A DNA stretch of 16,693 nucleotides. Origin: a virus (Duplodnaviria; Heunggongvirae; Uroviricota; Caudoviricetes). The first letter of the stretch is position 1. Each line of letters starts with the position of its first letter. The position numbers and the translations under genes are program-made. The stretch lies in the IMG/VR virus record IMGVR_UViG_2563366923_000005. One strand, written 5' to 3'. Of this stretch, positions 310 to 16,693 are shown in pieces. Below the pieces are notes generated by a model. The model had not been told where the DNA came from and ran no database searches. It saw nothing but the letters and a program-made list of their open reading frames with translations.

Positions 310-459
310 ATTTCACCAGAAGTTTGAACAGGAAAAGCCCTGCAATACATTTATAAACAACAAAACAGACTCTTCCTATTCCACGACAGCAATGTAGTGA
401 TCTAGAGCAATTTTATATTCCTGATAACCTCAAGATAATTCTTCCTTTACGCTTTATGC

Positions 460-2121: not shown

Positions 2122-2461
2122 GCTCGTCCTCCTCTTCCGTTTCTACCGGGTTACGGCGGCGGCTTACCGGATCAAAGCCCAGCAGCGACGACATTTTAAT
2201 CATGATTTTTTCAGCATCGGCCTTTGCACTCAGTGCAGGATTTCGGCTCTCGCCCCCCTGGCTGTTAACAATGCTGAACCCACGGCTGGCAAGGTCTTCC
2301 ACTGCTTTGCGGTACATCGAATAGTTGACGCAAAAAAGCTCAAGGTTGTTCCAGTCGGCGGGTGTCAGATCGCCACGCTCGGCCAGTTGCTTCGCTTTCG
2401 CTTTCCACTGCTGCGCGGCTAACTCATCAAGGTAAGCTGGCGGTTTTGGTGGTCTTGCCAT
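2105..2461 (-). CDS. terS: Phage terminase small subunit (P27-family-like)
   Basis: 118-aa product starting MARPPKPP (ATG at 2459-2461), with a pattern typical of P27-type small terminases (NPALSAKADAEKIM, FDPVSRRR). The ORF-track extension up to 2629 is G-rich and judged spurious. Confidence 0.8.
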   Translation of the reverse strand: MARPPKPPAYLDELAAQQWKAKAKQLAERGDLTPADWNNLELFCVNYSMYRKAVEDLASRGFSIVNSQGGESRNPALSAKADAEKIMIKMSSLLGFDPVSRRRNPVETEEEDELDRLE

Positions 2462-2736
2462 AAAAATTTCTCGTTTCCATCGCGTTTTATTTTCAAAAAA
2501 ATCACCGTGCGTAAAAATTTGAGGGGGCGGGCGGTGCCTGGCACCTTGAGGTTTGTCCTGAAAACCTCCCCCACCCCGTCCATGCGGCCTGTCAGCGGTT
2601 GCGGAAGCATTCCCGCAACTCCCGTTCACGCTCGCTCATACGCTGCACAGGCTGGCGCTCATTGCGTCTGCTTCGCCCCTGCATGAAGCCATCACGGCAG
2701 CGCATCAATGATCGGTACAGATTCACCACGTCTTTC
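2462..2736. other. Candidate cos / packaging-site region between HNH gene and terS
   Basis: 275-bp non-coding gap in the position where HK97-type genomes carry cos. It holds a GC-rich block at 2521-2578 with a perfect palindrome GGTGCC-T-GGCACC (2533-2545) and an inverted repeat GAGGTTT-N6-AAACCTC (2548-2568), flanked by a G-rich tract (2521-2534) and a C-rich tract (2565-2578). Confidence 0.35.
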
Positions 2737-3180
2737 TCATTCATTTCTGCCCTCATACATCCAGTCATTGCGATGGGCTGCACGCTCTTCCTGCTCTCGG
2801 TACAGCCCTGCCTTACGGTTCGCTTTGGTGATGGGGTCTTGCTGCGTGGTCTTCTGGTTATGATGCATCTGGCATAACGGCTGGTGATTCCACTCAGGCC
2901 AGAACAGAACATCATCACCGCCGTCGATAGGGATGATGTGATCGACAATCTTTGCAGGAACGTAGAGGCCCAACTTCTGGCACTCGACACATAGCGGCTG
3001 ACGTTTCAGATACTGAGCGCGGTACTTCTCCCATGATGCTGAGTAACCACGGGCGCGACGGTGGCCGCGTCTGGCATCTTCCGCCCGCCAGGCTTCGCGC
3101 TTGTGCTCATCGCACTTACCAGACTTCACCCGCTTATTGCATCCCGGCTCAGTGCACCGGCGCATTGGTTGCCACGGCAT
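2737..3180 (-). CDS. HNH endonuclease (terminase-associated)
   Basis: 147 aa from ATG at 3178-3180, overlapping the connector stop (ATGA). Cys clusters (CTEPGC, CDEH, CVECQ) and an HNH-like core (LCQMHHNQK). Position between connector and terS is typical of HK97-like packaging modules. Confidence 0.85.
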   Translation of the reverse strand: MPWQPMRRCTEPGCNKRVKSGKCDEHKREAWRAEDARRGHRRARGYSASWEKYRAQYLKRQPLCVECQKLGLYVPAKIVDHIIPIDGGDDVLFWPEWNHQPLCQMHHNQKTTQQDPITKANRKAGLYREQEERAAHRNDWMYEGRNE

Positions 3181-3479
3181 CAGTACACCCCCACATCGCG
3201 ATACACAGACCACAATGCAGAGATAGCAAGGGGGATCTCTTTCGCCTCCACATCACTAATCATCGTGCGGTATTCGTACAGTTGGGAAACGTACATAAGG
3301 CATCCGATCTTGATGGCAGGAGTAAATTCCAGGCCAGCACCGAACCGTTTACCGATATGCTTCTGGCAGACTTCCAGTGACGCTTCGATGTATGCCTGAA
3401 TCATTGCATCTTCATAGGAATCATCGTTATCGATGCGACAGTGAAGTTTTGCCTCATCAAGCCCAATTAGTTCACTCAC
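3180..3479 (-). CDS. gp6-like head-tail connector / DNA packaging protein
   Basis: 99 aa with GTG start at 3477-3479 preceded by GGGAGGG, and an in-frame stop directly upstream. N-terminus LDEAKLHCRIDNDDSYEDAMIQAYIEAS fits the gp6-like connector pattern. Confidence 0.75.
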   Translation of the reverse strand: MSELIGLDEAKLHCRIDNDDSYEDAMIQAYIEASLEVCQKHIGKRFGAGLEFTPAIKIGCLMYVSQLYEYRTMISDVEAKEIPLAISALWSVYRDVGVY

Positions 3480-3513
3480 GGCTTAAGCCCTCCCTTACAA
3501 AGCAACTCCAGCC

Positions 3514-4755
3514 TCATGACGCATCCTCCTTATTCTCAGAACCGGTACTGACCTTCACTTCCTGCTTCCATGCCTGGCTGTATTCGTCGCCCCCTTCACG
3601 CGGCGGCATCCCTTCGCGTTCGCGGGCTTCGTTCGGGTTCATGATCCCGTTCTTGATACCGCGCTCATAAGTTGCGTAACGTTCGGTTGGAGTGGCTCGA
3701 AGAAGATCGGCAGAGTCGAACTCCACCTGATAACGAATTCCGGGTACAGGCGATGCCACCAGCAACGCGGATTTAATCTGCTGCTCAAAGTTCGCCAGCC
3801 ACGGACGCATCGTCATGGTGAGAAATGCGCGGCTCGCCTCACTAAAGTTGCTGTAGGTGCTGTTGCTGTATTCCTGCAGGAAGATGGGGGACACGTTGAA
3901 CATGCGGGCAATGTCTTCAATGGAGAAGCGCCGGGAGGCCAGCCACTCAGCATCCTGATTGCTCATGCCAAGCTGCTTATAGTCCATGCCACCTTCAAGG
4001 ATCGGTGTTTTACCGGCATTTCTGGCACCTTTGTAGCGCTCAAGCGCGTCCAGCGCCTGTTTACCCTTCACACTATCGAGCCATTCAGCAGTAGTGACTA
4101 CGCCCGCCGCCATCATGCCATCTTTCATAATGCTGGCGCCGTGGCGCTGCTGGGCCAGACCTAACCCCAGCGCCTCACGGCAGATGGTGATCGGCGAGCG
4201 CCCCAGAAAACCATCATCGGTCGAGTAACGCAGGTGCAGAATCTCTTCCTGCAGGTAGGTGCGCACTGCCCCGGTAAACGGTTCAGTAACGGTGTATTTG
4301 TACTTATGCTGGCCGATACGCTCAGGAACAACCGCCCCCGGCGCATACGGATGCAGGGATTGCGGCTGGCCGTCACGGCCCCACTGGATCACCGCATAGG
4401 CGTTACCATTCAGCAGGCAATGACGCATCATCGTGCGCTTGAACTGGTAAGGCGTCTGACAGTCGTTCGGTTGCTCGTTAAGGAGAAAATCCACCGGGTG
4501 ATTGCTTAGCCACTCCCGCGCTTCTCGGCCGTTATCGTTGCGCACGCGGTAGAGGTAGCAGGGCATTGTTGCCACTGCCTCGCTGATAACTGATATGGCG
4601 TTCATGACCGCCGGCAGAGATTCCGCAGTACCGGCAGACACATATTCGCCTGATCCGGTATTTGGAATCCCTGCCATCGCCAGAAACTCATCAATCGTCA
4701 TGCTGCGCTGTTCGGATGGCTCAGATTTACGGCCAAAAGGCCAGATATTCCACAT
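3514..4755 (-). CDS. Phage portal protein (HK97 family)
   Basis: 413-aa ORF directly downstream of the protease gene with a 1-nt gap. Size and sequence character are typical of HK97-type portals. Confidence 0.88.
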   Translation of the reverse strand: MWNIWPFGRKSEPSEQRSMTIDEFLAMAGIPNTGSGEYVSAGTAESLPAVMNAISVISEAVATMPCYLYRVRNDNGREAREWLSNHPVDFLLNEQPNDCQTPYQFKRTMMRHCLLNGNAYAVIQWGRDGQPQSLHPYAPGAVVPERIGQHKYKYTVTEPFTGAVRTYLQEEILHLRYSTDDGFLGRSPITICREALGLGLAQQRHGASIMKDGMMAAGVVTTAEWLDSVKGKQALDALERYKGARNAGKTPILEGGMDYKQLGMSNQDAEWLASRRFSIEDIARMFNVSPIFLQEYSNSTYSNFSEASRAFLTMTMRPWLANFEQQIKSALLVASPVPGIRYQVEFDSADLLRATPTERYATYERGIKNGIMNPNEAREREGMPPREGGDEYSQAWKQEVKVSTGSENKEDAS

Positions 4756-4756
4756 A

Positions 4757-5317
4757 TCACAGCCCCGCTAAGTCAGCCCAGCGTCGGCGGTTATCACCAG
4801 CACGGCGCAGTTCAGGATGTTGGGAGAACAGAGAACGGTGCGCAATTTCCACGCCGGACTCAGGGTAAGCAGGCATAGAAGTAACGGTGATCTCCCGCAG
4901 CTCGGCAGCGGTAACAGTGCGAATATACGGTGTAGGAGTAATATCCCAGGACTCTTTCAGCGCACGGAATCCGAAGCTCATGCCGGAAATGTCTCCACGC
5001 TCCACCAGCTCCAGCACATCATTGCCAAGTTGGGTGTTTGGCGGGGTCAGCTCGAAACGCAGCCCGGTATCATCTTCGGACAACACCAGCGTGCCGGATT
5101 TGGTACGCCCCAGCAGTTGGGTATAGTTATGCTCGTACAGTGCACGCACATCGCTACCGGATGCCAGGCTGTCTTTAAACGCCCCCGGCGCAAACTGCTC
5201 GCGGAACTCATCCCAGATCACCTCTGACAGGCTGTTCCAGCGCACGGCATAGCCCACCAGCTTTTTGTTGCTGGCGCTCAGTTCGGAGGTACGGATTTCA
5301 AAATCGATTGTTTTCAT
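4757..5317 (-). CDS. Prohead maturation protease (HK97 family)
   Basis: 186 aa; the segment LVGYAVRWNSLSEVIWDEFREQFAPGAF matches the conserved N-terminal pattern of HK97 prohead proteases. GGAG lies 8 nt upstream of the ATG. Confidence 0.88.
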   Translation of the reverse strand: MKTIDFEIRTSELSASNKKLVGYAVRWNSLSEVIWDEFREQFAPGAFKDSLASGSDVRALYEHNYTQLLGRTKSGTLVLSEDDTGLRFELTPPNTQLGNDVLELVERGDISGMSFGFRALKESWDITPTPYIRTVTAAELREITVTSMPAYPESGVEIAHRSLFSQHPELRRAGDNRRRWADLAGL

Positions 5318-5340
5318 TGTTGGACTCCACAGAGGGCAAA

Positions 5341-5358
5341 AAGGGGCCGAAGCCCCTT
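5341..5358 (-). terminator. Intrinsic terminator-like hairpin between capsid and protease genes (probable partial terminator)
   Basis: On the minus strand: AAGGGGC-UUCG-GCCCCUU followed by UUUGCCC, so a 7-bp GC-rich stem with a UUCG tetraloop and a run of 5 U. It sits in the 51-nt gap after the capsid stop. Confidence 0.45.
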
Positions 5359-5368
5359 AAACGTCAGA

Positions 5369-6535
5369 TCAGGAACCGGAACCGGAAAGCTCAAGCACCT
5401 TGATGGCGTTGGAGTCCACCACACCACCGCCTAGGTATTTATCGGTGTGCACCTTGTAGAAACCAGGTTCGGTGATGTTGTCGGGGCGGGTACGCACGCC
5501 AGTGGTGTGATCCACGATGAAGTAACCGCGCTTAAAGTCGCCGACTGCCAGGAACGCTTCACCCGCAGCCGCATCAGGCATGGTTTCCAGGTATTGAACC
5601 GGACGGCCAAGGAGGGTATCGGGAGAGTCAGCGACGAGACGATCACGCCAGATGTAATCCCCGTTGCCGTTTTTCAGCTTTTGCAGCGTAGCGGCAGTGT
5701 TGGAGTTCATCACCCATACGGCATTTTTGCGGTATTTGGCTTTCAGCTTATACAGCAGGTCGATAAGACCATCAGAGGAAACGGCAGCAGCCTCCATCTT
5801 CTCCAGCGTGCCGAACGGACGGGTTTTATCGCTGGTGGCCGCACGCGGATAGGACAGGAACCCTTTGGATTTTTTATCACCGTCGCCGTTCACAAAGTCG
5901 GTTTCTTCGGTAGCAGTGAAGGTGTCGGTAATTTCGGAAGACAGCCAGCCCAGAATATCAACTTCGGAGAAGTCGAGAATTTCCTGAGTGGTTTTCGGGT
6001 AGGCGTAGATCGGGTTGAGTTTGATATCAACGCGCTCCATCTTCGGTGTGCTGGTTTCGGTACGCGCTTCGCCTTCGGTGCCGCGCTTAACGGTAGTGCC
6101 GCCCACTGACACCAGCTTCTGGTATTCGTTGGTTTTGGTGGTCTTCACCGTGGCGATGGAGCGCATAACGCTGTCATCCTGCAACTGGCGCATGATCTCT
6201 TTGTCCAGCTCAGGGATAACGGTATAGCCGCCGTCAGCCTGCACTAACGTGGAGAGAGAGCGGGTATCGCCGGTCATGATGTAGTGGCGCAGCTCATCGT
6301 TGCTTACACCTTTACCTTCAACAGAAGTACCAGGCAAATTGCGCTGATCGTCGGCGACGGCCTCAAGGCGGGTAATTTCAACTTCAAGCGCATCAGCCTG
6401 GGCGCGGAGTTCGTCGAACTGCTTTCCCTCTTCATCGTTCAGGCTTCGCTTTTCGCTGTCAGCTTTTTCCAGCATGGAACGCATCTGGGTTTTGAGTGCG
6501 GTTTTCTGCTGGCGTAATTCAAGTAATTTCTTCAT
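5369..6535 (-). CDS. Major capsid protein (HK97 fold) with N-terminal delta (scaffold-like) domain
   Basis: 388 aa from ATG at 6533-6535 (MKKLLELRQQK). The N-terminal ~100 aa are coiled-coil rich, like an HK97 delta domain, followed by a capsid-like body. The track extension to 6652 is judged spurious. Confidence 0.9.
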   Translation of the reverse strand: MKKLLELRQQKTALKTQMRSMLEKADSEKRSLNDEEGKQFDELRAQADALEVEITRLEAVADDQRNLPGTSVEGKGVSNDELRHYIMTGDTRSLSTLVQADGGYTVIPELDKEIMRQLQDDSVMRSIATVKTTKTNEYQKLVSVGGTTVKRGTEGEARTETSTPKMERVDIKLNPIYAYPKTTQEILDFSEVDILGWLSSEITDTFTATEETDFVNGDGDKKSKGFLSYPRAATSDKTRPFGTLEKMEAAAVSSDGLIDLLYKLKAKYRKNAVWVMNSNTAATLQKLKNGNGDYIWRDRLVADSPDTLLGRPVQYLETMPDAAAGEAFLAVGDFKRGYFIVDHTTGVRTRPDNITEPGFYKVHTDKYLGGGVVDSNAIKVLELSGSGS

Positions 6536-6563
6536 GGAGTGGTTTCCGTAACAATTAATGTTG

Positions 6564-6656
6564 AGACGTGAAACCTGCGCTTGGAGGGATGTCCACCTGG
6601 AAAGGAAACCGTCGCAGAACGGGAAAAAACCAGGTGGACAGTGGCGGCTCACGTCT
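6564..6656. promoter_or_regulatory. Nested inverted repeats upstream of the capsid gene
   Basis: Perfect 10-bp inverted repeat GTCCACCTGG (6591-6600) / CCAGGTGGAC (6630-6639) around a 29-nt A-rich spacer, nested inside a 7-bp inverted repeat AGACGTG (6564-6570) / CACGTCT (6650-6656). It lies 27-124 nt upstream of the capsid ATG on the minus strand. Confidence 0.35.
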
Positions 6657-6797
6657 GAGTGCCACTCTTCAAGATATACATAATAATCAATGAGTAAACA
6701 GCTCTATGTTGTCGCAAACAGCAGCGAAAACAGGAGAACAAATAATTTACAAAGTTTGATAATATGAACGGGAAAAAAACCACTTCTGGGGGATTTT

Positions 6798-7310
6798 ATG
6801 GACTTCGATTTTGATGATATGGCATACCCGGATATTTTTTTAATTTCCGGCGAGGAGTTTAAAGGAAGCCGGAACACAGGAAAAAATCAGGTAGATATCC
6901 CGTTTACTGACGAACCGCAAATTGAATTGGGCGATATTCTGATTCAGAAGATTGGAAGCCGTGAGTTAAGCCTTAAAGTTGTCGATCTTTCAATATCAAA
7001 GAATGGAACGCTGAACGTGGGTACAACGCATCCTCACTTACTGACGTTATCCGTAGAGAATCTTTCTTCCAACGCACACAGGACAGCAAAGAGTATGAAT
7101 ACTTTTAATATTGGCTCCGTCAGTGGTGAGCAAGTTCAAATAGGTGAAAGTAATCATATGCTGGTGAATATCAGTATTACTGAACTTGTCGAGAAAGTGG
7201 CTAACTCTGGCGATCCACAGGCTAAATCAATGTTGAAACAGTTACTGGAAAATAGCACCGTTGCCAGTATCGTTGGCGCTGGCGCTTCTGCGCTATTAGG
7301 TCTGCTTTAA
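6798..7310 (+). CDS. Hypothetical protein with C-terminal hydrophobic Gly/Ala-rich tail; accessory gene on the opposite strand
   Basis: 170-aa ORF with GGGGGA 4 nt before the ATG. C-terminus TVASIVGAGASALLGLL looks like a single tail anchor or glycine-zipper segment. About 43% GC in a sampled 60 nt. Only sizeable plus-strand gene inside the island besides the RHH gene. Confidence 0.6.
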   Translation: MDFDFDDMAYPDIFLISGEEFKGSRNTGKNQVDIPFTDEPQIELGDILIQKIGSRELSLKVVDLSISKNGTLNVGTTHPHLLTLSVENLSSNAHRTAKSMNTFNIGSVSGEQVQIGESNHMLVNISITELVEKVANSGDPQAKSMLKQLLENSTVASIVGAGASALLGLL

Positions 7311-7315
7311 AATAT

Positions 7316-7335
7316 GGCCTGGGAAAAACCAGGCC
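7316..7335. terminator. Bidirectional intrinsic terminator between convergent accessory genes
   Basis: GGCCTGG-GAAAAA-CCAGGCC hairpin with TTT downstream on plus and an A-rich stretch upstream. A second 8-bp hairpin GGCTGGAT / ATCCAGCC (7349-7375) spans the stop codon of the minus-strand gene. Confidence 0.6.
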
Positions 7336-7357
7336 TTTAGCTTATATGGCTGGATGA

Positions 7358-7693
7358 TTATTCTTTATCCAGCCCCCACTGATAGAAAGCCCAGCTTGCC
7401 GTTGATTGTGCGCTATGGATAGCGTTCTCAAGGCCAGAGGTTGGGTACGACAAATCAGCCGCCATCCTCTGTAGAAGATCGAGGTAAGCGCTGGCGTCTT
7501 TCGACAACTCTTGCTCCCCTTCTTCCAGCCCAGACTGGTACGATTCCAGATCAAGCTTTTCAGAAGTGACAAACGCACTCAGAGCCAGAAAATCCGTCAC
7601 TGTAATCTCATCTTTATTTGAAAGCTCATCAACGGCGCTGTAGAGAAACTTAAGATCGCTCATATGCCCGTTATCTTTGCCAATCAGTTTCAT
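7358..7693 (-). CDS. Hypothetical acidic protein (accessory / possible interference or immunity function)
   Basis: 111-aa ORF with AGAGGT 6 nt upstream of the ATG at 7691-7693. Acidic and probably helical, with no recognisable catalytic motif. Lies immediately downstream of the iteron origin. Confidence 0.6.
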   Translation of the reverse strand: MKLIGKDNGHMSDLKFLYSAVDELSNKDEITVTDFLALSAFVTSEKLDLESYQSGLEEGEQELSKDASAYLDLLQRMAADLSYPTSGLENAIHSAQSTASWAFYQWGLDKE

Positions 7694-7732
7694 TAATAAC
7701 CTCTTTATTTTTCACGTATATATACAGAACTA

Positions 7733-8011
7733 TGTTGGTTCAGTTAGTTCAGTTGGTTCAATTTGTAAAGATGATTGTTTTATAATGATTATTTCCCGTT
7801 GAGTGAACCAACAAAGCCCCGATTTGAACCAACATTGGGTATTTTCATGTTGGTTCAGTCCATGAGGTTCTAAAATGTTGGTTCAAACTGCCCGTTTGTT
7901 GGTTCAAAACTGCTATTTGTTGGTTCAGTGTTGGTTCATTTTTTGACATTAAACCCATATAAAACAGCCACATGAACATAACCCATAGACACTGAACCAA
8001 CTGAACCAACA
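7733..8011. repeat. Iteron array / replication origin (ori)
   Basis: About 10 copies of TGTTGGTTCA or its reverse complement TGAACCAACA at 7733, 7752, 7804, 7824, 7849, 7876, 7897, 7918, 7929 and 8002, with AT-rich spacers, directly downstream of the replication gene. Confidence 0.8.
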
Positions 8012-8034
8012 TTAATAACCCTCACATGTGTAAT

Positions 8035-10170
8035 TTATTCTTCTCCATCTTCCGCAACCTGGTGAAGCACATAAACGTTGATTTGACGCCCATCAATACG
8101 CGGGGATTTCTGCTGGTATCCACGCCCGCTGGACGGCTCAGAAAGCAAGCCAGCAGCGGCAAGCACGCGGGCAAACTGCCTGGCGTTAAAGCCCTGAGCT
8201 ATCTCCTTCTCAAACGTTGCGGGGAACGTATAGAACACCAGCGGCGAATCATCATGGCTGCTTTTGCGCTTTCGATACCCGGCCAGATCGCGAATCGGCA
8301 TACTGGACGGATCATAGGGCAACGGTGCAAAGCGGCTTAAACCGTAGGCATTCAGGAACGCCTCGCACTGCTCGATGATCTGCTGGTGCTCTTTGTTACC
8401 CGTGCCGAACTCTTTCACCCAGGCGTTAAAGCTATGCTGGATAGCGTCACGGCTGGCCTGTTCACTCCATCCGGTGATTGATGCACCAGTTACCAGCGCG
8501 GCTTCGAGGATTGCAAAGCGTTCGGCCACGCGGTGTACCTGCTCACCGTAATCCGCCGGGATGAGGCCGCGCCAGCGCGTTTGCGCGTCACGCACCGCCT
8601 GTTTAGCCTCCTGCTGGTTAGCCGCCAGCCATTTAACCCACTCACGCCCCGCCGCCCCGTGGTTATCAATCCAGGCTTCTTTCAGTGCGTCAGCATGAGC
8701 CTTGCCGTTTGGCAGACCGTTAAAGGCCGTCGATTTCTCCATAGGGATGTTGAGCAAGCGCACCAGTTGGCCCGCTTTCACTTTCAGCCCACCAGCAGCC
8801 AGGAAGGTTTCAATATCCATTTCCCCGGTGCTGATCGCCACAGTGCGCCAGCGTTTAAGCTCCCGATTGCCGCCCTCTTTGGCTCCCTGCAACTTTCCGG
8901 CACCGTTAAACAGGGTGTAAGCAGACGTGGCAACATCTTTGGCACTGCTGCCCTGTCCTACCTCATCAAGCGGTAACAGGCTGTCGTTATGCGCCTCCGC
9001 TTCGTTTGCTATGCCAAGCGCAGTACCGTACCAGGTAAGCCGCAACGCATCAGGCTCACCCCACAGGCTGCTCGCAATATTGGCGGTAGTGGTCTTACCG
9101 GCGCTCGACTGCTCGAACAAATGGACGCCGAAACCATCAGCACCCACCAGGCCAATAAGCGGCGCGGATAATGCCGCTGCCACGCCCAGCATCATGGACG
9201 GATTGCCCCCGGCCAGACGGGCGACGGAATCCCGCCAGGTGGCAGCAGTACCAGCAATGGCATACCCGGAAGATGCAGCGCTGCGACCGTTAAAGAGAAT
9301 GGGCGTCTCTGGATCACCAATCACTTCACCATCAGGCATGATATATGCGCCATGATGCCAGCCAGTGGTATGGGTGATAATCCATTCCCGATCAGTGCCG
9401 CTTTGCTGCAACCAGTCGGCCAGAATCGCCCGGAAGGTGCTTTTAGTGGTCACATTCACCCCACCAGCTTTAAGTGAGCGCCAGCCGTCGCGCTCACCGA
9501 TATCAGCACAGGGGATCGCCCTGGTAATATCTTCATGGCCACGCGGCGAACGCCAGCGCAAAACAAGATAGCGCTCTGCCCCGTCACTACCGGAGCCGAC
9601 CACCTCAAGAGGCGAGCACAGCCACGTTTCGTTATTGATGATCTCGCCACTATCCTTGTCCACCTTTGGCGTGATCCAGTACAGGCCATCGCTCCGGCTC
9701 TCCACGCGGGGTTTGAGTTCATCGCCCGGTTCAGGCTTTGGCTCCCGTTTTTTTACAGGCAGGTTCACCACAATGCTTTCCCCGCGTTCGGCCTCTTCTT
9801 TGAGACGTGGAAGCCTGCCCGTCCAGTCCTCCTTCGGCTGAGGCTCAAACATGCCATTAAACAGCCTGGCCTCTTTCACATCCGCCAGCGCCAGTTTGGT
9901 TGCGATAGTGCTTATCTGCATTTCGGAAAGTTCGCCAGCGCGGATCACACGAACACTGCGACGGCCGTTATCAACAATGTTTAACCGTTCCAGTTCCGCA
10001 AGTTGCCTTTTACCCAGATAAACAGGCGGTACATCATCCCATGCCCTTTTACCTTCGCTCTCGATCCAGTGCTGCACATGTGAATAGGCATCTTCACCCG
10101 CAAAGATAATCGCCTCTGTAAATTTATCTTTCGGCAGGAATTTAATATTCGGGGCATTCTTCATCTTCAT
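8035..10170 (-). CDS. Replication initiator / primase-helicase (DUF927-type P-loop NTPase)
   Basis: 711 aa with Walker A motif FEQSSAGKTT. Size and position (last gene of the operon, next to the iterons) match satellite or PICI Rep proteins. AAGGTG RBS; start overlaps the upstream gene's stop (ATGA). Confidence 0.85.
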   Translation of the reverse strand: MKMKNAPNIKFLPKDKFTEAIIFAGEDAYSHVQHWIESEGKRAWDDVPPVYLGKRQLAELERLNIVDNGRRSVRVIRAGELSEMQISTIATKLALADVKEARLFNGMFEPQPKEDWTGRLPRLKEEAERGESIVVNLPVKKREPKPEPGDELKPRVESRSDGLYWITPKVDKDSGEIINNETWLCSPLEVVGSGSDGAERYLVLRWRSPRGHEDITRAIPCADIGERDGWRSLKAGGVNVTTKSTFRAILADWLQQSGTDREWIITHTTGWHHGAYIMPDGEVIGDPETPILFNGRSAASSGYAIAGTAATWRDSVARLAGGNPSMMLGVAAALSAPLIGLVGADGFGVHLFEQSSAGKTTTANIASSLWGEPDALRLTWYGTALGIANEAEAHNDSLLPLDEVGQGSSAKDVATSAYTLFNGAGKLQGAKEGGNRELKRWRTVAISTGEMDIETFLAAGGLKVKAGQLVRLLNIPMEKSTAFNGLPNGKAHADALKEAWIDNHGAAGREWVKWLAANQQEAKQAVRDAQTRWRGLIPADYGEQVHRVAERFAILEAALVTGASITGWSEQASRDAIQHSFNAWVKEFGTGNKEHQQIIEQCEAFLNAYGLSRFAPLPYDPSSMPIRDLAGYRKRKSSHDDSPLVFYTFPATFEKEIAQGFNARQFARVLAAAGLLSEPSSGRGYQQKSPRIDGRQINVYVLHQVAEDGEE

Positions 10171-10535
10171 CAGTGCAACACCTTATTGGACATATCCGCG
10201 CCCAGGTCTTCATGCAGGTACTCAAGGTGGCAGCTTTTCACTATCTGCAACCCCATTTCGTTAATATCGCCATCGTCGGTAAAGCAGGTCAGCAGAATAT
10301 CCCGCAAACGCCTTAACCCCTCATCGCGCCCGAACTCTTCAAAGCAGCCAAAAATCATATACTTCATCAATACGTTTTCAGTTACGCGCGGCTCCAGCGT
10401 GAAGCGATAGCGGGCCATATACTTATCGCTTTCCACCAGCAAGGTTGCCGAACCGGTTTCCGCTGTCTGGTGAGCAATACAGGCTTCGGTCAGTTTGCGG
10501 AACAATGGGCCTATCACTTCAAAAATATCGGTCAT
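10170..10535 (-). CDS. Hypothetical protein (replication-operon member)
   Basis: 121-aa ORF; its stop overlaps the rep start and its start overlaps the upstream gene's stop. No recognisable motif. Confidence 0.6.
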   Translation of the reverse strand: MTDIFEVIGPLFRKLTEACIAHQTAETGSATLLVESDKYMARYRFTLEPRVTENVLMKYMIFGCFEEFGRDEGLRRLRDILLTCFTDDGDINEMGLQIVKSCHLEYLHEDLGADMSNKVLH

Positions 10536-10900
10536 TGTGGGATACCTCCGCTCATCTGAAATTTGCCAAGTAATGGGTGATACCAGTATGCAGAGCCATA
10601 TTTGCGCTTAGCACTGCGCAGCACCAACCGTGCCGCTTCCCTGAACTTTTCATCAGGTGCAACGAACCCGCCTGATTTCAGTTTAACCAGCATCACCCCT
10701 GTGTTTTTCGCCAGCTCCTCAGCCTTTTTGGTTGAGATACCGTATTCAGCAGCCAGTGTTGCTACTGGCGTCATACCCGGAGGGATTTCTCCGCCCTGAC
10801 TATCGGTAAGTGATTTAACCTGAGCCTCAAGGCGCAAGACCTTCTCAACCAGCAGATCAACGCGGTTAGCCAGTTCGTTAAACTTCACATTGCTGATCAT
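10532..10900 (-). CDS. Hypothetical protein, possible DNA-binding (HTH-like segment)
   Basis: 122 aa with an N-terminal coiled-coil-like region and a possible helix-turn-helix (TPVATLAAEYGISTKKAEELAK). Start ATG overlaps the upstream stop (ATGA). Confidence 0.6.
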   Translation of the reverse strand: MISNVKFNELANRVDLLVEKVLRLEAQVKSLTDSQGGEIPPGMTPVATLAAEYGISTKKAEELAKNTGVMLVKLKSGGFVAPDEKFREAARLVLRSAKRKYGSAYWYHPLLGKFQMSGGIPQ

Positions 10901-11124
10901 GGTCTTGCCTCCTGAGTTTCAGGGTCTGAAAAAGTAGAAATATCCAGTGAGTTTGCCAGTTCGTCAGAAAGGCGCTGAGCCAGGTGCGTTAAACTCATAA
11001 CATGGATACGCTCCGCCTCCCCCTTGATAGTTGAAAGGTAAGCAGCACATGACATGAGCGCAGCAACCTCTTGCGCCAGCAACAGCAAATCTTTTTTGCT
11101 GCGGTAGGTGTAAAAGTTATCCAT
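10897..11124 (-). CDS. Hypothetical small protein
   Basis: 75 aa from ATG at 11122-11124 (MDNFYTYRSKK). The track extension to 11184 overlaps the upstream gene and is judged less likely. Confidence 0.5.
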   Translation of the reverse strand: MDNFYTYRSKKDLLLLAQEVAALMSCAAYLSTIKGEAERIHVMSLTHLAQRLSDELANSLDISTFSDPETQEARP

Positions 11125-11314
11125 TGAGCGCCCCCTTTTTATCCTGCTCCAGCATAAAGGTGGCAATATCGCCAGAAATATCACGGGCCAGATCGATGAG
11201 GTTATCCCTCTCGTGACCTGAAATTTCGCAGTCTGAAATCACCAGAAGCAACGTTGCCAACTGACAAGCGCGGGACGTGGCTTTTTCTCTGCCAAGAGTT
11301 TCAATGTCATACAT
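11117..11314 (-). CDS. Hypothetical small protein
   Basis: 65-aa ORF whose start overlaps the Icd-like gene's stop. Part of a chain of overlapping start/stop codons. Confidence 0.5.
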   Translation of the reverse strand: MYDIETLGREKATSRACQLATLLLVISDCEISGHERDNLIDLARDISGDIATFMLEQDKKGALNG

Positions 11315-11519
11315 GTCGCACCTCCAGCATCTGAAATGCGTGGAACGGCAGGCGGGCAGCGAAAATAAGAGTTACGCCGGGCATGGTGTCGCGGGCTTCC
11401 CGTTCACTGGATGCGTTGACGTAAATCACCAACGGTTTGGCGGTAGGGTAGCGCTCAGAGGCGGAGAGAAAACGCCATGTAAATTCAGGGCGAGTTTGGG
11501 TAGACTGATTGTCAGCCAT
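11307..11519 (-). CDS. Icd-like small protein (P4/P1 family, putative cell-division inhibitor homolog)
   Basis: 70 aa from ATG at 11517-11519 (MADNQSTQTRPEFTWRF...FAARLPFHAFQMLEVRHV) with GAGGT RBS. The FTW and FAARLP pattern matches Icd-like proteins of P4-like elements as I recall them. The 250-aa track ORF is a spurious upstream extension. Confidence 0.55.
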   Translation of the reverse strand: MADNQSTQTRPEFTWRFLSASERYPTAKPLVIYVNASSEREARDTMPGVTLIFAARLPFHAFQMLEVRHV

Positions 11520-11709
11520 AACTGTTACCTCACTTAACGGTTTGTGGTCAGAGGCCCGGTTAGTGTTCCTAGCACTACCGGGCTTCGCACTTGAAAGGTG
11601 TATGTCACCTTTAATATTCAAACTAGCCCAAAGTGAAATACACTTCAAGCCTTTTTCTTTTATTTTTTTTGCGTATACTGAAATACACCTAACATAAGGA
11701 GTTTCAGTA
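11520..11709. promoter_or_regulatory. Divergent promoter / operator region
   Basis: Bulged palindrome GCCCGGTTAGTG-N7-CACTACCGGGC (11554-11583); 7-bp inverted repeat AAAGGTG-N5-CACCTTT (11594-11612); direct repeat TGAAATACAC at 11634-11643 and 11679-11688, the second next to a TATACT -10-like hexamer (11674-11679); long T tract at 11651-11670. Confidence 0.45.
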
Positions 11710-11895
11710 ATGGCAACAGGTGCGAAGAATGCAAAGTCACAAATGACCACAGTTCGAATCCCCCATGATGTGATGGAAGATATCGAACTTTTTAAACATG
11801 AAGGTGAAAGTACCGCAGGGTTTCTTGTCACTGCTGCGAAAGGCGAAATCAAACGCCGCCAGCGCCAAAAGGCAAAAGAAGAGCCAAAATCCTGA
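11710..11895 (+). CDS. Small ribbon-helix-helix-like DNA-binding protein (putative island regulator)
   Basis: 61-aa ORF with AAGGAG 9 nt upstream. TTVRIPHDVMEDIELFKHEGESTAGFLVTAAKGEI fits a beta-strand plus two helices (RHH/Arc-like), followed by a basic tail. Divergent from the replication operon. Confidence 0.55.
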   Translation: MATGAKNAKSQMTTVRIPHDVMEDIELFKHEGESTAGFLVTAAKGEIKRRQRQKAKEEPKS

Positions 11896-11902
11896 ATAAA
11901 AT

Positions 11903-11925
11903 CAGCGGGCGCAGAATTGCGCTGG
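11903..11925. terminator. Weak hairpin downstream of the RHH gene
   Basis: GCGCA-GAAT-TGCGC stem-loop (alternative CAGCG/CGCTG pairing) 8 nt after the stop codon. The U-tract is poor, so terminator function is uncertain. Confidence 0.25.
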
Positions 11926-12018
11926 CTCATTCTTTGACCACCAGCATTAACCCTGGTATGCTTAATCTGTTTCGGTTTTTCGTAGTGACATTGGCAGCTC
12001 TGCAAAGTTGCCTTTGTT

Positions 12019-12798
12019 TTATTCAGCGTCAGCATTCGGCACCTCCGGCAATACGCCACCAGCGATCAGTTTCTTCGTTAACCACTGCTCCCCCTTCCCC
12101 GTCAGCATCGTTGTGAATGAGGCTCTTACTTCGCCATTCGTTTCATACGTTCCCTGGCGAACGGCAAAATAACCGCTATCGATATAACGCTGCATAGGCA
12201 GGTTGTGGCGCTGGCCACCGTTGATGAGAATCCCCTGTTGCCTCATCCAGCCGAATAATTTGAAGGGGCCAAGCCCTACGGCTTTGGCATAGTTGGAAAT
12301 GGAAATACCCTTGCTGATCTCCGCAACGCGATCAGCGAAATCAACTTTTGGCGCAGCGGCCACCAGCCGGTTTTCAAGTTCGCTTGCCTTTTCGGCCAGA
12401 TCAGCAGCAAGGCGCAGGGCTTCCGGTAACGTCTGGGGGATATTAGCGGCGGCTTTTGCCTGGCGTTCGCAGTTGATGAAGTAGCGGCGCACCTCCCGCC
12501 CTTTTTCGTTGCGCTCAACCATTGCCAGCTCTTTACCCATGTCGATGGTGATCAGGTAATCATGTGCAATTTGTTGGCGATATTTTGCGCTCCCCGAAAC
12601 GGGGGCGCTCAAATTTTCAACCACCGTAAAATCTACACCAGCAGTAAAACCATACTGGCTGATACGCCCCTTAATCCATGTGGTGAAATCACGCCCAACG
12701 CCGAGAAACTCATGGAGTTTTTTTGCACTGACCAGCGATACCGTCACGCCGCCAATATTTCCGGGGTTAACCGGAACCAACTCATTTAATTTTTGCAT
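12019..12798 (-). CDS. Phage antirepressor (AntA N-terminal domain + KilAC C-terminal domain)
   Basis: 259 aa from ATG at 12796-12798. HDYLITIDMGKELAMVERNEKGREVRRYFINCERQ matches the AntA signature; C-terminal NLPMQRYIDSGYFAVRQGTYETNGEVRASFTTMLTGKGEQWLTKKL matches the KilAC/ANT pattern. Confidence 0.85.
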   Translation of the reverse strand: MQKLNELVPVNPGNIGGVTVSLVSAKKLHEFLGVGRDFTTWIKGRISQYGFTAGVDFTVVENLSAPVSGSAKYRQQIAHDYLITIDMGKELAMVERNEKGREVRRYFINCERQAKAAANIPQTLPEALRLAADLAEKASELENRLVAAAPKVDFADRVAEISKGISISNYAKAVGLGPFKLFGWMRQQGILINGGQRHNLPMQRYIDSGYFAVRQGTYETNGEVRASFTTMLTGKGEQWLTKKLIAGGVLPEVPNADAE

Positions 12799-12808
12799 AG
12801 CGCCCCCC

Positions 12809-13093
12809 TTACGCGGATTTACGGTTGTAAGGGGTGTTGACGTTCTCAACAGCAGGTGGATTGCGAACCCACCAAAGAACATCTGACAGAAGCCATGCGC
12901 AACTATTACGGCCAAAGTGGCAGCGTGGCGGGAATTTACCTTCGTTCTCCATATACCAGCGGGTGGAACGGGAAAGGCTGGTTATTTCGAAGCATTCACT
13001 TTCACGAATACGGCGATCAAACTTAATGCCATATTCTGCGAGAATGGTGCGGCGTTGTTCTGGTGTTGGCGGGGTAAAACGAGTATTTGACAT
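12809..13093 (-). CDS. alpA: AlpA-family transcriptional regulator (excisionase-like)
   Basis: 94 aa; LSRSTRWYMENEGKFPP...GRNSCAWLLSDVLWW fits the AlpA HTH pattern. GGAGGA RBS. Immediately upstream of the antirepressor gene. Confidence 0.8.
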   Translation of the reverse strand: MSNTRFTPPTPEQRRTILAEYGIKFDRRIRESECFEITSLSRSTRWYMENEGKFPPRCHFGRNSCAWLLSDVLWWVRNPPAVENVNTPYNRKSA

Positions 13094-13187
13094 ACTTCCT
13101 CCACTTAACGCAATCAGAAGGAGCCTTTCCTGTCTGTTCTTGCGTTGTGGGGGAAGTATTTGTCTAAAGTAAATTAATAAAAATGGC

Positions 13188-13264
13188 TTCTAAAATTTAA
13201 AAAGGCGTGTTTAATTCTAAAAAGGGTAATCTAATGATTAGAACACCCTTTCTAACGTTTAGAA
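13188..13264. repeat. Cluster of TTCTAA / TTAGAA hexamers in the alpA upstream region
   Basis: TTCTAA at 13188, 13215 and 13250; TTAGAA at 13238 and 13259, including TTAGAA-CACCCT-TTCTAA-CGT-TTAGAA. AT-rich 180-bp intergenic region. Confidence 0.3.
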
Positions 13265-13274
13265 GCTACTACAA

Positions 13275-14216
13275 TTAAAACTTAAAGTGCCTACTAATGT
13301 ATGAGGTAATTGTGTCAACGCTCTTGACCGGGCATTGTCCGTCAGGAAATAAGTGCACTCTGTCGGAAAGTTCTCTGGCCCATGCTGAGAAATTGTAGCT
13401 CCCATCTTTTTTCAAGCACTTTTCATTGAAAATATCAGAATTTGTTTCTTTGAATTTTATTGCAGCACTTAAAATTAATAGTTCATTTCGTGCATGTTTT
13501 TCTTTTGCACTTTCTGAGCGTTTATTAATACTATTTTTTGAATCAGAGTCTAAATCAGGTCGTTCAATATCATTGAGCATTGGCAGCTTATCGAAATCAA
13601 GGCCGCTTTCCATAAGCCGTTTAATATCATAATTAGTAACCCATAAATCATCATACCCGGCTTCAAACTCATAAGGGTCGAAATTAAACCTCTTGCCATT
13701 AGCCTGATCGATAAAAGGTTGGGCTGGCAGAATCTGAATTACTGGAGTTTCACCGCCTGTGAGGCACGGGAAAAATCCGGGGAAAAAATCCTTCACAGGT
13801 AAAGATGACTCAAACTGATCGGGCATTACCCGCCACAGACCTAATGCAAAGCCATATCCGACAAGGAACCCTTTACTTTCTTGTTCCGTAAAGATGTCTG
13901 AACCAGATAATAGTTTATCAGGTTCAAAATAACGGCCATTAGTAAATTCAATAAAAGAGTGATTCGTTATCGCGCGGGTTTGCCCTGACATAGAATTAAA
14001 AGTACGAGGAAAATATAGTGATGAATACCAATCCTTTACATCATTAAAATCTTCACGAAGAAGGATTCGGCAGTGAAACCTTTTCAGCATCATGCTTATT
14101 TCGATTTTATTTTCAATAGCAAGGTTGATCAAATCTGACGGTTCAACCCCCAGAAATGATGCACCTCTGGACAATCTACAATATGAAAATGGAATCTTTA
14201 TTTCTTTTTCTGCCAT
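13275..14216 (-). CDS. Hypothetical protein, AT-rich cargo gene between int and alpA (candidate defence / accessory function)
   Basis: 313-aa ORF with GAGGG RBS. 27% GC in a sampled 60 nt, far below the head genes. No family recognised by eye. Contains YDDLWVTNYDIK, a D-x8-D-x-K arrangement weakly reminiscent of a PD-(D/E)xK core. Confidence 0.65.
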   Translation of the reverse strand: MAEKEIKIPFSYCRLSRGASFLGVEPSDLINLAIENKIEISMMLKRFHCRILLREDFNDVKDWYSSLYFPRTFNSMSGQTRAITNHSFIEFTNGRYFEPDKLLSGSDIFTEQESKGFLVGYGFALGLWRVMPDQFESSLPVKDFFPGFFPCLTGGETPVIQILPAQPFIDQANGKRFNFDPYEFEAGYDDLWVTNYDIKRLMESGLDFDKLPMLNDIERPDLDSDSKNSINKRSESAKEKHARNELLILSAAIKFKETNSDIFNEKCLKKDGSYNFSAWARELSDRVHLFPDGQCPVKSVDTITSYISRHFKF

Positions 14217-14308
14217 AACGCTACCCTCAACGCCCCTAATTAACTTGCGAGCCAGGCGGGTAGGGTTTCCCGCTTTTCGGTTGGCCGACCTAGACTCGCA
14301 AGACCAGT

Positions 14309-15535
14309 TTAATCTCTATTCGCTACAGTTAACAGAACCACATTTTGATGATTACCCGCAAGAAGTTCTAAGCGATCATACCACTTATTCAGCGCGTCCA
14401 GTTTTTCCGGCAGATACAGACTACGGTTATAAATCGCCATAACCCCTGGCATTGAGTGGCCCAGCAACTGTTCAACAACGTGCGGAGCTATACCCATATT
14501 ATTCATATGCGTTGCAAGCGTTCGCCGTAGATCATGCAATGTCCACGGTTCAGAATGCCCCAGTTTTTTATAAACACTACGGCCCCACTGGCTAACCGCT
14601 TCGCTATTCTTCACAACCCCAAGAAGGTAGCCGGATGATTTTGTTTCATCGTGGAGCATTTCAATAAATGAACGCATCGCCTCTGGAACTGGACGCACAA
14701 TCTTTTCACCGCCTTTACTATGCGCTTTTGGTACTGTCCACACCCACGCCTCCATATCCCATTCGGCCCACTCTGACAATCTGGCCTCCTGGGTGCGGCA
14801 ACCAAACAAAGTGGTGATCCTGAGTAAGTTTGTGTAGTAAGGCAGAAAAACATCGCCGGACGATATAGCAGCCCACAATCCCCCAACCTCTTTATCTTTC
14901 AATACCCGATCTTTTTTCGCCTGCTTTTTACCAACATCGGGAATACTCAAATCTTCAAGGGCGGTACTGACGGCGTAACGGCGAACGCGGCAGAATTTCA
15001 GAGCCTGCTTACACATCTGGAATACATAACCCGCAGCAACTGGCGTTTTCTTTTTCATTCTGTCGAAGCAGTCAAGCCAGTATCGGGTTTCGCAGTCAGC
15101 GAGCGCCATTTTCCCAATGTAAGGGTAAATATGTTTGCGTAGCTCCGCTTTGTGCCGCTCAACGTTCGCACGATTTTCTTCCGCATATTCGCGTATCCAG
15201 TATTCGATAGCTTCCTGCACCGTGACCGGTTTAAGCGTTTCCTGAGTAGTTAGCGCCAATTGGTGCTTTGGGTCTTTACCAGAGGCCAACCACTGACGAC
15301 ATTTATCACGCGAGGAACGGGCCTCTTTGAGACTCATATCAGGGTAGCGCCCCAGAGTCAGCCGATGCAGCTTCTGCCCGTCGAGTCGGTAAGTAAACAC
15401 CCAGCTAATGCCACCAGCTTTCGTTACCTTAGCACTCAACCCGGCACCATCAGCATAAAACTCAATCTTACTGGCCGGGATGCCATGTAATCCCTTTAAC
15501 TTCCTGTCGCTCAGTTTGTTAAGTTCGCCAGCCAT
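14309..15535 (-). CDS. int: Tyrosine site-specific integrase (P4-type)
   Basis: 408 aa; C-terminal catalytic region with WTLHDLRRTLATHM, LLGHS and AIYNRS (R, H-x-x-R, Y). Lies at the element terminus next to the chromosomal junction. Confidence 0.9.
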   Translation of the reverse strand: MAGELNKLSDRKLKGLHGIPASKIEFYADGAGLSAKVTKAGGISWVFTYRLDGQKLHRLTLGRYPDMSLKEARSSRDKCRQWLASGKDPKHQLALTTQETLKPVTVQEAIEYWIREYAEENRANVERHKAELRKHIYPYIGKMALADCETRYWLDCFDRMKKKTPVAAGYVFQMCKQALKFCRVRRYAVSTALEDLSIPDVGKKQAKKDRVLKDKEVGGLWAAISSGDVFLPYYTNLLRITTLFGCRTQEARLSEWAEWDMEAWVWTVPKAHSKGGEKIVRPVPEAMRSFIEMLHDETKSSGYLLGVVKNSEAVSQWGRSVYKKLGHSEPWTLHDLRRTLATHMNNMGIAPHVVEQLLGHSMPGVMAIYNRSLYLPEKLDALNKWYDRLELLAGNHQNVVLLTVANRD

Positions 15536-15557
15536 AGACCACCACCCAGCCCAAAGT

Positions 15558-15578
15558 GTTTATACAAATGTTTATACA
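15558..15578. repeat. Tandem direct repeat GTTTATACA x2 (possible integrase arm-type sites / int promoter region)
   Basis: GTTTATACA at 15558-15566 and 15570-15578 (12-bp period), 23 bp upstream of the int start codon, within AT-rich DNA between int and the junction. Confidence 0.3.
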
Positions 15579-15708
15579 GAATTGCTTGCATAATAGCATA
15601 AACAACAAAAAGCACTGGAACAATATACAGTCACAATTTCATATAACCAATTGATTTTAAATAAAATATAAAAACCACCCCAAAGCATGAAAACAGCTAA
15701 TCTGACAG

Positions 15709-15723
15709 TACGGCATGAACTAA
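15709..15723 (+). other. fis: Displaced 3' end of fis (last 4 codons + stop); probable att core / right junction
   Basis: TAC GGC ATG AAC TAA encodes Y-G-M-N-stop, the Fis C-terminus as I recall it. The frame is closed just upstream by TGA at 15703-15705. yhdJ starts 85 nt downstream. Confidence 0.5.
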
Positions 15724-15750
15724 TTCAGGTTAGCTAAATGCTTGATTAAA

Positions 15751-15786
15751 AAGGCGCTACTCGGCATGGGGAAGCGCCTTTTTTAT
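15751..15786. terminator. Bidirectional intrinsic terminator (probably the native fis operon terminator)
   Basis: AAGGCGCT / AGCGCCTT 8-bp stem (15751-15758 and 15773-15780) with a 14-nt loop, A-run upstream and a T-run of 6 downstream. Confidence 0.6.
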
Positions 15787-15808
15787 AGGTGTCACAAAGG
15801 GAGTGACC

Positions 15809-16693
15809 ATGAGAACAGGATGTGAACCGACCCGGTTTGGTAATGAAGCTAAGACCATTATTCACGGTGATGCCCTTGCCGAACTTAAAAAGCTACCTAC
15901 TGAAAGCGTCGATCTGATCTTTGCCGACCCACCGTATAACATCGGTAAAAATTTTGATGGTCTGATCGAAGCCTGGAAAGAAGATCTGTTTATCGACTGG
16001 CTGTTTGAAGTGATTGCAGAGTGCCACCGCGTTCTGAAAAAGCAGGGCAGCATGTACATTATGAACAGTACGGAAAACATGCCCTTTATCGATCTCCAGT
16101 GCCGCAAGCTTTTTACCATCAAAAGTCGCATCGTCTGGTCATATGACAGTTCTGGAGTACAGGCGAAAAAACACTACGGCTCCATGTACGAACCCATCCT
16201 GATGATGGTGAAAGACGCAAAGAACTACACATTCAACGGTGATGCTATTCTGGTAGAAGCCAAAACCGGATCGCAGCGCGCGTTGATCGATTATCGCAAA
16301 AATCCTCCACAGCCATACAATCATCAAAAAGTACCGGGTAACGTCTGGGATTTTCCGCGCGTGCGTTATTTAATGGATGAATATGAGAACCACCCGACGC
16401 AAAAACCGGAAGCCTTACTGAAACGCATTATTCTCGCCTCTTCCAACCCAGGCGATATCGTTCTCGACCCGTTTGCCGGTAGCTTTACTACCGGTGCCGT
16501 AGCCATCGCCAGCGGACGAAAATTCATTGGTATTGAGATCAACAGCGAGTACATCAAAATGGGGCTTCGACGGCTGGATGTCGCGTCGCATTACTCCGCG
16601 GAAGAACTGGCGAAAGTGAAAAAAAGAAAGACGGGCAACCGGTCAAAACGATGCCGGGTTAGCGAAGTTGACCCCGATCTCATTGCAAAGTAA
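15809..16693 (+). CDS. yhdJ: N6-adenine DNA methyltransferase YhdJ (chromosomal flank)
   Basis: 294 aa from ATG at 15809 with AAAGGGAG RBS. DPPY catalytic motif (FADPPYN) and AdoMet-binding LDPFAGSFTTG. Near-identical to E. coli YhdJ as I recall it. The track's GTG at 15803 is less likely. Confidence 0.8.
   Translation: MRTGCEPTRFGNEAKTIIHGDALAELKKLPTESVDLIFADPPYNIGKNFDGLIEAWKEDLFIDWLFEVIAECHRVLKKQGSMYIMNSTENMPFIDLQCRKLFTIKSRIVWSYDSSGVQAKKHYGSMYEPILMMVKDAKNYTFNGDAILVEAKTGSQRALIDYRKNPPQPYNHQKVPGNVWDFPRVRYLMDEYENHPTQKPEALLKRIILASSNPGDIVLDPFAGSFTTGAVAIASGRKFIGIEINSEYIKMGLRRLDVASHYSAEELAKVKKRKTGNRSKRCRVSEVDPDLIAK

Follow-up and report, generated by a model that had tools for sequence, protein, structure and literature searches.

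The fis terminus displaced beside yhdJ very probably marks the integrase-proximal junction of a capsid-forming fis PICI

Background

Elements such as e14 and phage 21, at icd, and P4, P22 and many islands, at tRNA genes, integrate in the 3' end of their target and carry a replacement for it. Their attP holds a second copy of the 3' part of the target: the gene remains functional, while the displaced end is found at the far junction. The locus described here is alike in these respects, but only four codons of the target are replaced, and the duplicated block consists mostly of 3' UTR and terminator.

The closest described elements are the 'fis PICIs', reported in 2023 in NAR Genomics and Bioinformatics (PMC10111431) from islands mapped by TIGER, 2,642 at first and then 3,565. 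The consensus block of identity between their attL and attR is TACGGCATGAACTAA, which can extend into a rho-independent terminator. The usual gene across the island from fis is yhdJ; the islands have AlpA, the signature gene of Gram-negative PICIs, lack tail genes, and were concluded to be PICIs and not prophages (PMC10111431). In the case of Kpn47.16.fis, mitomycin-induced excision was mapped within TACGGCATGAACTGATAC. The same study describes in the attPs of helper-embedded PICIs (HE-PICIs) a doubled motif, TGTATTGC, with a 12-bp period and two co-oriented copies, which is absent from fis PICI attPs; it leaves open whether the integrase, AlpA or another protein binds this motif. A second relevant system is EcCIEDL933, the prototype of the capsid-forming PICIs (10.1101/2022.09.08.507074), which combines int and alpA with a head and packaging module, without tail or lysis genes, in about 15 to 16 kb. 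The island studied here, known from its genes alone, has the same composition, except for a head-closure gene, and the same size; 10.1101/2022.09.08.507074 makes no mention of fis as an integration site.

We analyzed a stretch of 16,693 nucleotides, hereafter the window, taken from a Caudoviricetes record (IMGVR_UViG_2563366923_000005). The phenomenon that it displays is already published as that of the fis PICIs (PMC10111431): the window shares with them the target (the 3' terminus of fis), the block TACGGCATGAACTAA, its extension into the fis terminator, the position of yhdJ across the island from fis, and a common layout in which an inward tyrosine integrase at the junction accompanies AlpA, an antirepressor (Bro-type), and replication and late zones. 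The essentials being identical, the window is one more member. As far as sequence comparison goes, the increment over published work is a set of predicted arm-site classes that change together with the arm-binding domain of the integrase: PMC10111431 reports no motif for fis PICIs, whereas here GTTTATACA and at least five other classes were found on both arms. A literature search, not exhaustive, returned no earlier report of the GTTTATACA motif, and combining GTTTATACA with integrase gave unrelated papers only. The island is also one more satellite landing in a highly conserved and highly expressed gene end, a target valid across genera, with the gene rebuilt.

The boundary between island and chromosome

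The 15-mer TACGGCATGAACTAA lies at positions 15709 to 15723 of the window, on the plus strand, where it reads Y-G-M-N-stop and equals the published identity block of the fis PICIs. It occurs once in the window, with about 0.03 chance matches expected, even with two mismatches, and a TGA at 15703-15705 shuts the reading frame just 5' of it. On its 3' side, at about 15748-15786 (plus strand), folding reveals the native rho-independent terminator of fis, now placed between the island and yhdJ. It consists of an 11-bp G+C-rich stem followed by a U-run, and the 81-nt segment that contains it has a minimum free energy of -26.4 kcal/mol (z = -3.65); a simple consensus terminator scanner did not flag this site, though folding shows the hairpin clearly. 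The gene that follows, at 15809-16693 on the plus strand, is yhdJ, an adenine-specific DNA methyltransferase gene and the usual chromosomal neighbor of fis, annotated at the corresponding place in a record 99.9% identical to the window (KFu015).

Positions 15400 to 16693 were used as a query against 5,426 complete E. coli genomes, of which 5,424 match. All the matching genomes but 19, that is, more than 5,400, align only from query position 310 rightwards, which is window position 15709, and the aligned part in these empty-site genomes comprises the fis end, the intergenic region and yhdJ. An empty-site example (L002) reads ...AAAAAA-TACGGCATGAAC-TAA-spacer-terminator-yhdJ, whereas in the window the core block is directly preceded by CTGACAG. 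In the 19 other genomes this integrase type is found beside yhdJ. Given 5,536 matching places in the 5,426 genomes, a second copy of the fis end is present in about 110 of them.

These results account for an otherwise orphan fis-like 15-mer and terminator beside yhdJ, and place the island boundary at 15708/15709. A preliminary description, made from the window alone, had recognized the 15-mer as the C-terminal end of Fis, closed upstream by the TGA and followed by a terminator and yhdJ, and had proposed an alignment with an island-free fis-yhdJ region. The alignment, the reading of the sequence, the folding and the annotation of the 99.9%-identical record bear out these points, the references breaking exactly at 15709 without any match upstream. 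The extent of the remnant has to be widened: the 15-nt fis end was correctly identified, but the match to the empty site takes in all the chromosomal DNA from 15709 on.

The identity block stands at the boundary, and in relatives of the window the island lies between a restored fis and yhdJ; at the junction there is an inward integrase, a Phage_AlpA match accompanies it, and no tail family appears among the scanned ORFs. We are highly confident that the window contains the integrase-proximal junction of a fis PICI, a capsid-forming satellite of about 16 kb integrated at the fis end.

The far junction and the rebuilt fis gene

The first 157 bp or so of the island, counted from fis, are missing from the window, which opens at the stop codon of a DUF3892 gene, and the fis-side junction therefore lies outside it. 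Two close relatives contain this junction: KFu015 (L003), 99.9% identical over the whole window, and PCP06171 (L001), 98.8% identical. In both, the gene order is dusB, fis, an island of about 16 kb, and yhdJ; fis is intact, and its product has the same accession (WP_000462905.1) as in the empty-site strain. The second core copy expected at the other end of the island is present in both genomes, where it closes the intact fis.

An alignment of attB and attP with both kinds of junction, which took in E. coli variants and metagenomic attPs, leaves a single block common to all of them, the 13-bp TACGGCATGAACT. This block covers the four terminal codons of fis and one base of the stop codon, the first, and is found at 15709-15721 (plus strand) in the window. 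At the fis-side junction of PCP06171, 873.10, OW1E2, 21AR0133, PE15 and FDAARGOS_1283, island sequence begins right after TACGGCATGAACT. This island-borne fis end has a TGA stop (7 of the 8 sampled E. coli fis-side junctions of this island class), a 26-bp spacer unlike that of E. coli, and a terminator that looks like the one of fis but has one to a few differences, while at the yhdJ-side junction of PCP06171-type islands the native sequence is retained. Since PCP06171-type junctions share only TACGGCATGAACT and then diverge, the crossover is placed within the last 13 bp of fis, which means that the stop codon, the 3' UTR and the terminator of fis are supplied by the island. The direct repeat at the other island end is 13 bp long in most relatives.

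KFu015, the closest relative, has a different fis side: the TAA and the spacer are the native ones, and a single base of the terminator stem is of the island type. Its direct repeat with the window segment 15709-15786 (plus strand) is 78 bp long, encompassing the fis end, the 26-bp spacer and the terminator, and is identical at 77 of 78 positions, with one mismatch; the same segment matches the PCP06171 fis-side junction at 85.9%. As the native-type spacer stands on both KFu015 junctions, the crossover is not placeable from KFu015 alone. The native-type fis side of this strain would imply either a later gene conversion between the repeats or an attP variant. We infer from the relatives that the window's own copy has a replacement fis end as well.

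The 78-bp repeats raise the question as to whether the coding sequence was ever cut. The insertion could have occurred in the fis-yhdJ intergenic region, with a crossover in the terminator hairpin, and the 15-nt match would then be part of a longer duplicated flank. KFu015 and E. coli islands of the TGACTGCAC class, which repeat 78 bp through the terminator and in which the crossover point is unreadable, are compatible with this scenario. However, the junctions of PCP06171, 873.10, OW1E2, 21AR0133, PE15, FDAARGOS_1283 and the Scandinavium island (L040) share only TACGGCATGAACT, and a fis side on which island-type sequence follows directly after TACGGCATGAACT places the exchange within the last 13 bp of fis. 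Moreover, the remnant is flanked by host terminators that have nothing in common from one genus to another (for example in Proteus and Erwinia), yet the core is constant, and the published mapping of excision puts the exchange in TACGGCATGAACTGATAC (PMC10111431). We therefore consider an intergenic insertion very improbable. The terminator as crossover site is itself rejected, given the junctions that share only TACGGCATGAACT.

Integration within fis very probably proceeds as follows. As the comparison of the junctions shows, the tyrosine integrase recombined the island attP with the chromosomal attB inside the 13-bp TACGGCATGAACT. As the relatives show, attP brings its own stop codon, spacer and fis-terminator look-alike, by which fis is rebuilt at the far junction, and the original fis terminus with its native terminator is left stranded beside yhdJ at 15709-15786. 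The island terminator probably also keeps transcription of the dusB-fis operon, which is strongly expressed, from running on into the packaging genes, whose orientation is opposite.

The preliminary description had proposed this very arrangement, with an insertion into the end of the fis coding sequence and a replacement 3' end carried by the island, and the junctions of the relatives agree with it. It had further suggested that the expression of Fis depends in part on island-supplied sequence. This holds for the stop codon, the 3' UTR and the terminator; the protein, on the other hand, is unchanged, and the substitute terminators fold alike, at -26.1 and -24.4 kcal/mol compared with -26.4 kcal/mol for the native one, which is about equal. 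Fis is a growth-phase signal as well as a cofactor of lambda excision. If the TGA, 26-nt spacer and slightly altered terminator that fis receives from the satellite in most E. coli carriers of this island class changed the formation or stability of the fis mRNA 3' end, and hence Fis levels, the behavior of the satellite would be coupled to host physiology through Fis; we regard such an effect, conceivable from the sequences, as very improbable.

A separate observation concerns the origin of the island-borne fis 3' flank, which differs between near-identical islands (L003, 1341-1393, versus L001, 4176-4228). It is E. coli-like in KFu015, whereas the flank of PCP06171 and others is closer to those of fis in other genera, Pluralibacter, Enterobacter and Klebsiella among them. 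The foreign-type flank may go back to previous hosts and have been replaced in KFu015 through some recombination event.

Arm-type repeats on both sides of the core

The integrase-proximal att arm, on the island side of the junction, extends from the int start to the core (15536-15708), and is also found in the contiguous attPs of two metagenomic contigs (L016 and L021, see below). It contains a doubled motif, T-GTTTATACA-AAT-GTTTATACA, at 15557-15578 on the plus strand, 23 bp from the int start codon, with exact copies of GTTTATACA at 15558-15566 and 15570-15578 and hence a 12-bp period. In KFu015 (L003), where both arms can be read, the exact 9-mer occurs 4 times in 19.7 kb, compared with 0.10 occurrences expected, and the four copies form two pairs, one per att arm.

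Of 42 distinct contexts among the loci compared, 41 have a doubled motif that begins 150 to 154 bp upstream of the core, and the remaining context has a three-copy form that starts 164 bp upstream. The partner motif begins 79 to 83 bp downstream of the core start (37 distinct contexts). At least six motif classes were distinguished, among them GTTTATACA, TGACTGCAC, GACTACAC (AGACTACAC or TGACTACAC), GTACCCCAC and GTGATACAC, all with the 12-bp period. Three of them, GTTTATACA, TGACTGCAC and GTGATACAC, were each found on both arms of one island.

We then compared motif class with integrase identity for 20 integrases, taking residues 1-95 and the rest of the protein separately. Over residues 1-95, identity to the integrase of the window is at least 72.6% for integrases with the same motif class, and at most 63.7% for those with other classes, whereas the classes are not separated by identity over the remainder of the protein. 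The contrast is clearest in individual cases: the L033 integrase, which goes with a different motif, has 79.6% identity outside the N-terminal domain and 61% within it, while the L035 and L036 integrases are 63% identical outside this domain and 79% inside, and have the motif of the window. The integrase also bears the marks of the lambda/P4 type, namely an N-terminal arm-binding domain and, in both arms of attP, repeats unlike the core. The tandem repeats had been noted from the window alone as possible integrase arm sites, a proposal that gains support from their presence on both arms, their fixed distances and the way in which their class tracks Arm-DNA-bind_3. The pattern is as expected if the doubled motif is an arm site read by this domain, which is how we predict it. 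A fixed core combined with changing classes of arm site and domain would amount to a natural set of specificity pairs, testable or usable in engineering.

Alternatively, AlpA or another regulator of the island may use the doubled GTTTATACA as its operator, or the motif may belong to the int promoter region. Its location fits such a role, as it is preceded by a promoter-like match and followed, 23 bp on, by the int start codon, and the study that described the analogous HE-PICI motif leaves its binder open (PMC10111431). Against it stand the second, co-oriented copy on the far arm, which has no int gene near it and keeps a fixed distance of 79 to 83 bp from the core, and the fact that both motif copies flank the core in the intact attP; in addition, the motif class tracks Arm-DNA-bind_3 and not the catalytic part (L033 versus L035 and L036). 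We hold the operator hypothesis to be unlikely, and retain the arm-site interpretation.

The HE-PICI motif tgTGTATTGCantgTGTATTGCa (PMC10111431) likewise has tandem half-sites with a 12-bp period in two co-oriented copies, set at fixed but unequal distances to the left and right of the crossover, as in the class found in the window, and the integrases are related. The motif centers lie 81 and 132 bp from the attP center in HE-PICIs and about 86 and 147 bp here, so that the long-arm distance is about 15 bp greater in the fis islands; the sequence of the motif differs, and the target is a prophage late gene in HE-PICIs, in contrast to the chromosomal fis here. In position, the fis arm motifs are counterparts of the HE-PICI doubled motif.

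Two further matches in the proximal arm were found by consensus only. The first, TAACCAATTGATT = YAANNNNTTGATW, at 15644-15656 on the minus strand, is an IHF consensus match and a possible bending site; of 46 distinct arms, 17 have a strict match at this very distance from the core, 65 bp before it, and we take an IHF bend at 15644-15656 as a lead. The second is a sigma-70-like promoter match directed towards int (TTTTCA-17-TATATT, 15665-15693, minus strand, 9 of 12 positions). The recombination complex would probably assemble on two doubled GTTTATACA-N3-GTTTATACA sites, one starting about 152 bp before the core (15557-15578) and the other starting about 81 bp after it, outside the window. The Arm-DNA-bind_3 domain of the integrase would bind these doubled sites, the DNA would probably be bent by IHF, and AlpA would supply directionality.

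Another conserved element, AAAAGCAC(T/C)(G/A)GAACA, is present in the window at 15607-15632 and in the far arm of L003 at about 1446-1470. It recurs on both att arms, and also in several genera whose islands belong to the GTTTATACA and GTACCCCAC classes; in other classes its place is taken by repeated (A/G)AAC(A/G)A-rich blocks. The element may be a candidate site for AlpA or another accessory protein.

Gene content of the island

The island DNA occupies positions 1 to 15708 of the window (minus strand), out of about 15.9 kb in all, and was identified as a capsid-forming PICI-type phage satellite from the RefSeq annotation of KFu015 and Pfam matches. The latter comprise TerL, Terminase_4, HNH, Phage_connect_1, Phage_portal, Phage_capsid, DUF927, ANT/AntA, Phage_AlpA and integrase. 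The tyrosine integrase (408 aa, 14309-15535, minus strand), transcribed inwards from the att junction, has the Pfam domains Arm-DNA-bind_3 (aa 8-92, E = 3e-19), Phage_int_M and Phage_integrase, and the HDLRRT and LGHS...Y motifs are readable in its translation. The AlpA-family regulator or excisionase is encoded at 12809-13093 on the minus strand (Phage_AlpA, E = 2.3e-10). Besides these two, the regulatory genes are an AntA/KilAC antirepressor and small Icd-like and YlcI-like genes; replication is represented by a DUF927 primase, and the head and packaging genes encode the major capsid protein, an HK97-type protease, the portal, a connector, HNH, TerS and TerL. Pfam scans of 20 ORFs gave no match to a tail or lysis family, and the RefSeq annotation of KFu015 lists none. 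This gene set is, by its family matches, that of a capsid-forming PICI, and the module is complete in the window except for the head-closure gene, which EcCIEDL933-type islands have and which is deleted in the window's copy.

The deletion is visible as about 288 bp absent at 3480-3513 of the window, and also absent from KFu015, relative to PCP06171 (L001, 7850-8136). In the window only the two ends of the head-closure gene are left, between the connector and portal genes. The window's copy may therefore be unable to complete tail-competent capsids, and is perhaps not fully mobile.

An ORF of 313 aa (13275-14216, minus strand) stands between int and alpA. Neither Pfam nor PADLOC gave a match for it or for the ORFs at 6798-7310 and 7358-7693, so that no defence function can be assigned to the three. 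The slot between int and alpA is variable: PCP06171 has two other small ORFs there, and other fis islands have DUF6387 or another hypothetical gene. The 313-aa ORF may be accessory cargo.

Spread and possible excised form

A search limited to one genome per species yielded 17 relatives of the integrase, 63 to 99% identical, in more than 12 enterobacterial genera (among them Pluralibacter, Enterobacter, Klebsiella, Pectobacterium, Brenneria, Rosenbergiella, Rahnella, Proteus, Serratia, Yersinia, Erwinia and Scandinavium). All 17 have TACGGCATGAA upstream of the int start, at 165 to 270 bp (typically about 175 bp), after which host-specific flanks follow. One of them, in Pluralibacter gergoviae (NZ_BCZS01000045.1, L026), is 99% identical to the integrase of the window and stands at the fis site. 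A recent report describes identical capsid-forming PICIs spread across genera (10.1101/2025.02.11.637232), and this integrase in another genus fits the spread reported there.

An unbroken attP was found in two metagenomic viral contigs (L016 and L021), belonging to relatives 85 to 93% identical. The order in both is arm motif, 130 bp, TACGGCATGAACT, TGA-type spacer, terminator look-alike and arm motif. In L016, a contig of 15,518 bp, attP links the TerL end of the island to int, as would be expected for excised, replicating or packaged DNA, tandem integrated islands being also possible in principle. An exact attP pattern derived from the PCP06171-type junction had no match in the viral contigs, and these attPs were recovered with looser patterns, anchored on the arm motif and the core.

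Should the locus then be seen as a decayed prophage, fixed in place, whose fis-like 15-mer is a relic without current site-specific activity? The window's copy has lost the approximately 288 bp that include the head-closure gene of PCP06171, and no helper phage is known for it. Against such decay, relatives retain the integrase, AlpA and both arm motifs in intact form, and the island, at about 16 kb, is without tail or lysis genes. Furthermore, the 99%-identical integrase occupies the same site in Pluralibacter, intact attPs are present in viromes, close islands are found at the same site in unrelated E. coli isolates, and PMC10111431 calls the fis islands PICIs, not prophages. A decayed remnant is thus extremely improbable, compared with a satellite of the fis PICI type.

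Finally, one relative lies elsewhere than beside fis. In a further viral record (IMGVR_UViG_2905361683_000017, L023, 11279-12100), a Proteus-type relative of the integrase is associated with the GTTTATACA arm motif and the same 12-bp core, GTTCATGCCGTA, located inside a phage portal gene that it truncates. The truncated portal matches Pfam Head-tail_con with E = 6e-72, over profile positions 2-210 of 489. From its layout, this looks like a helper-embedded insertion of a fis-type attP in a prophage late gene.
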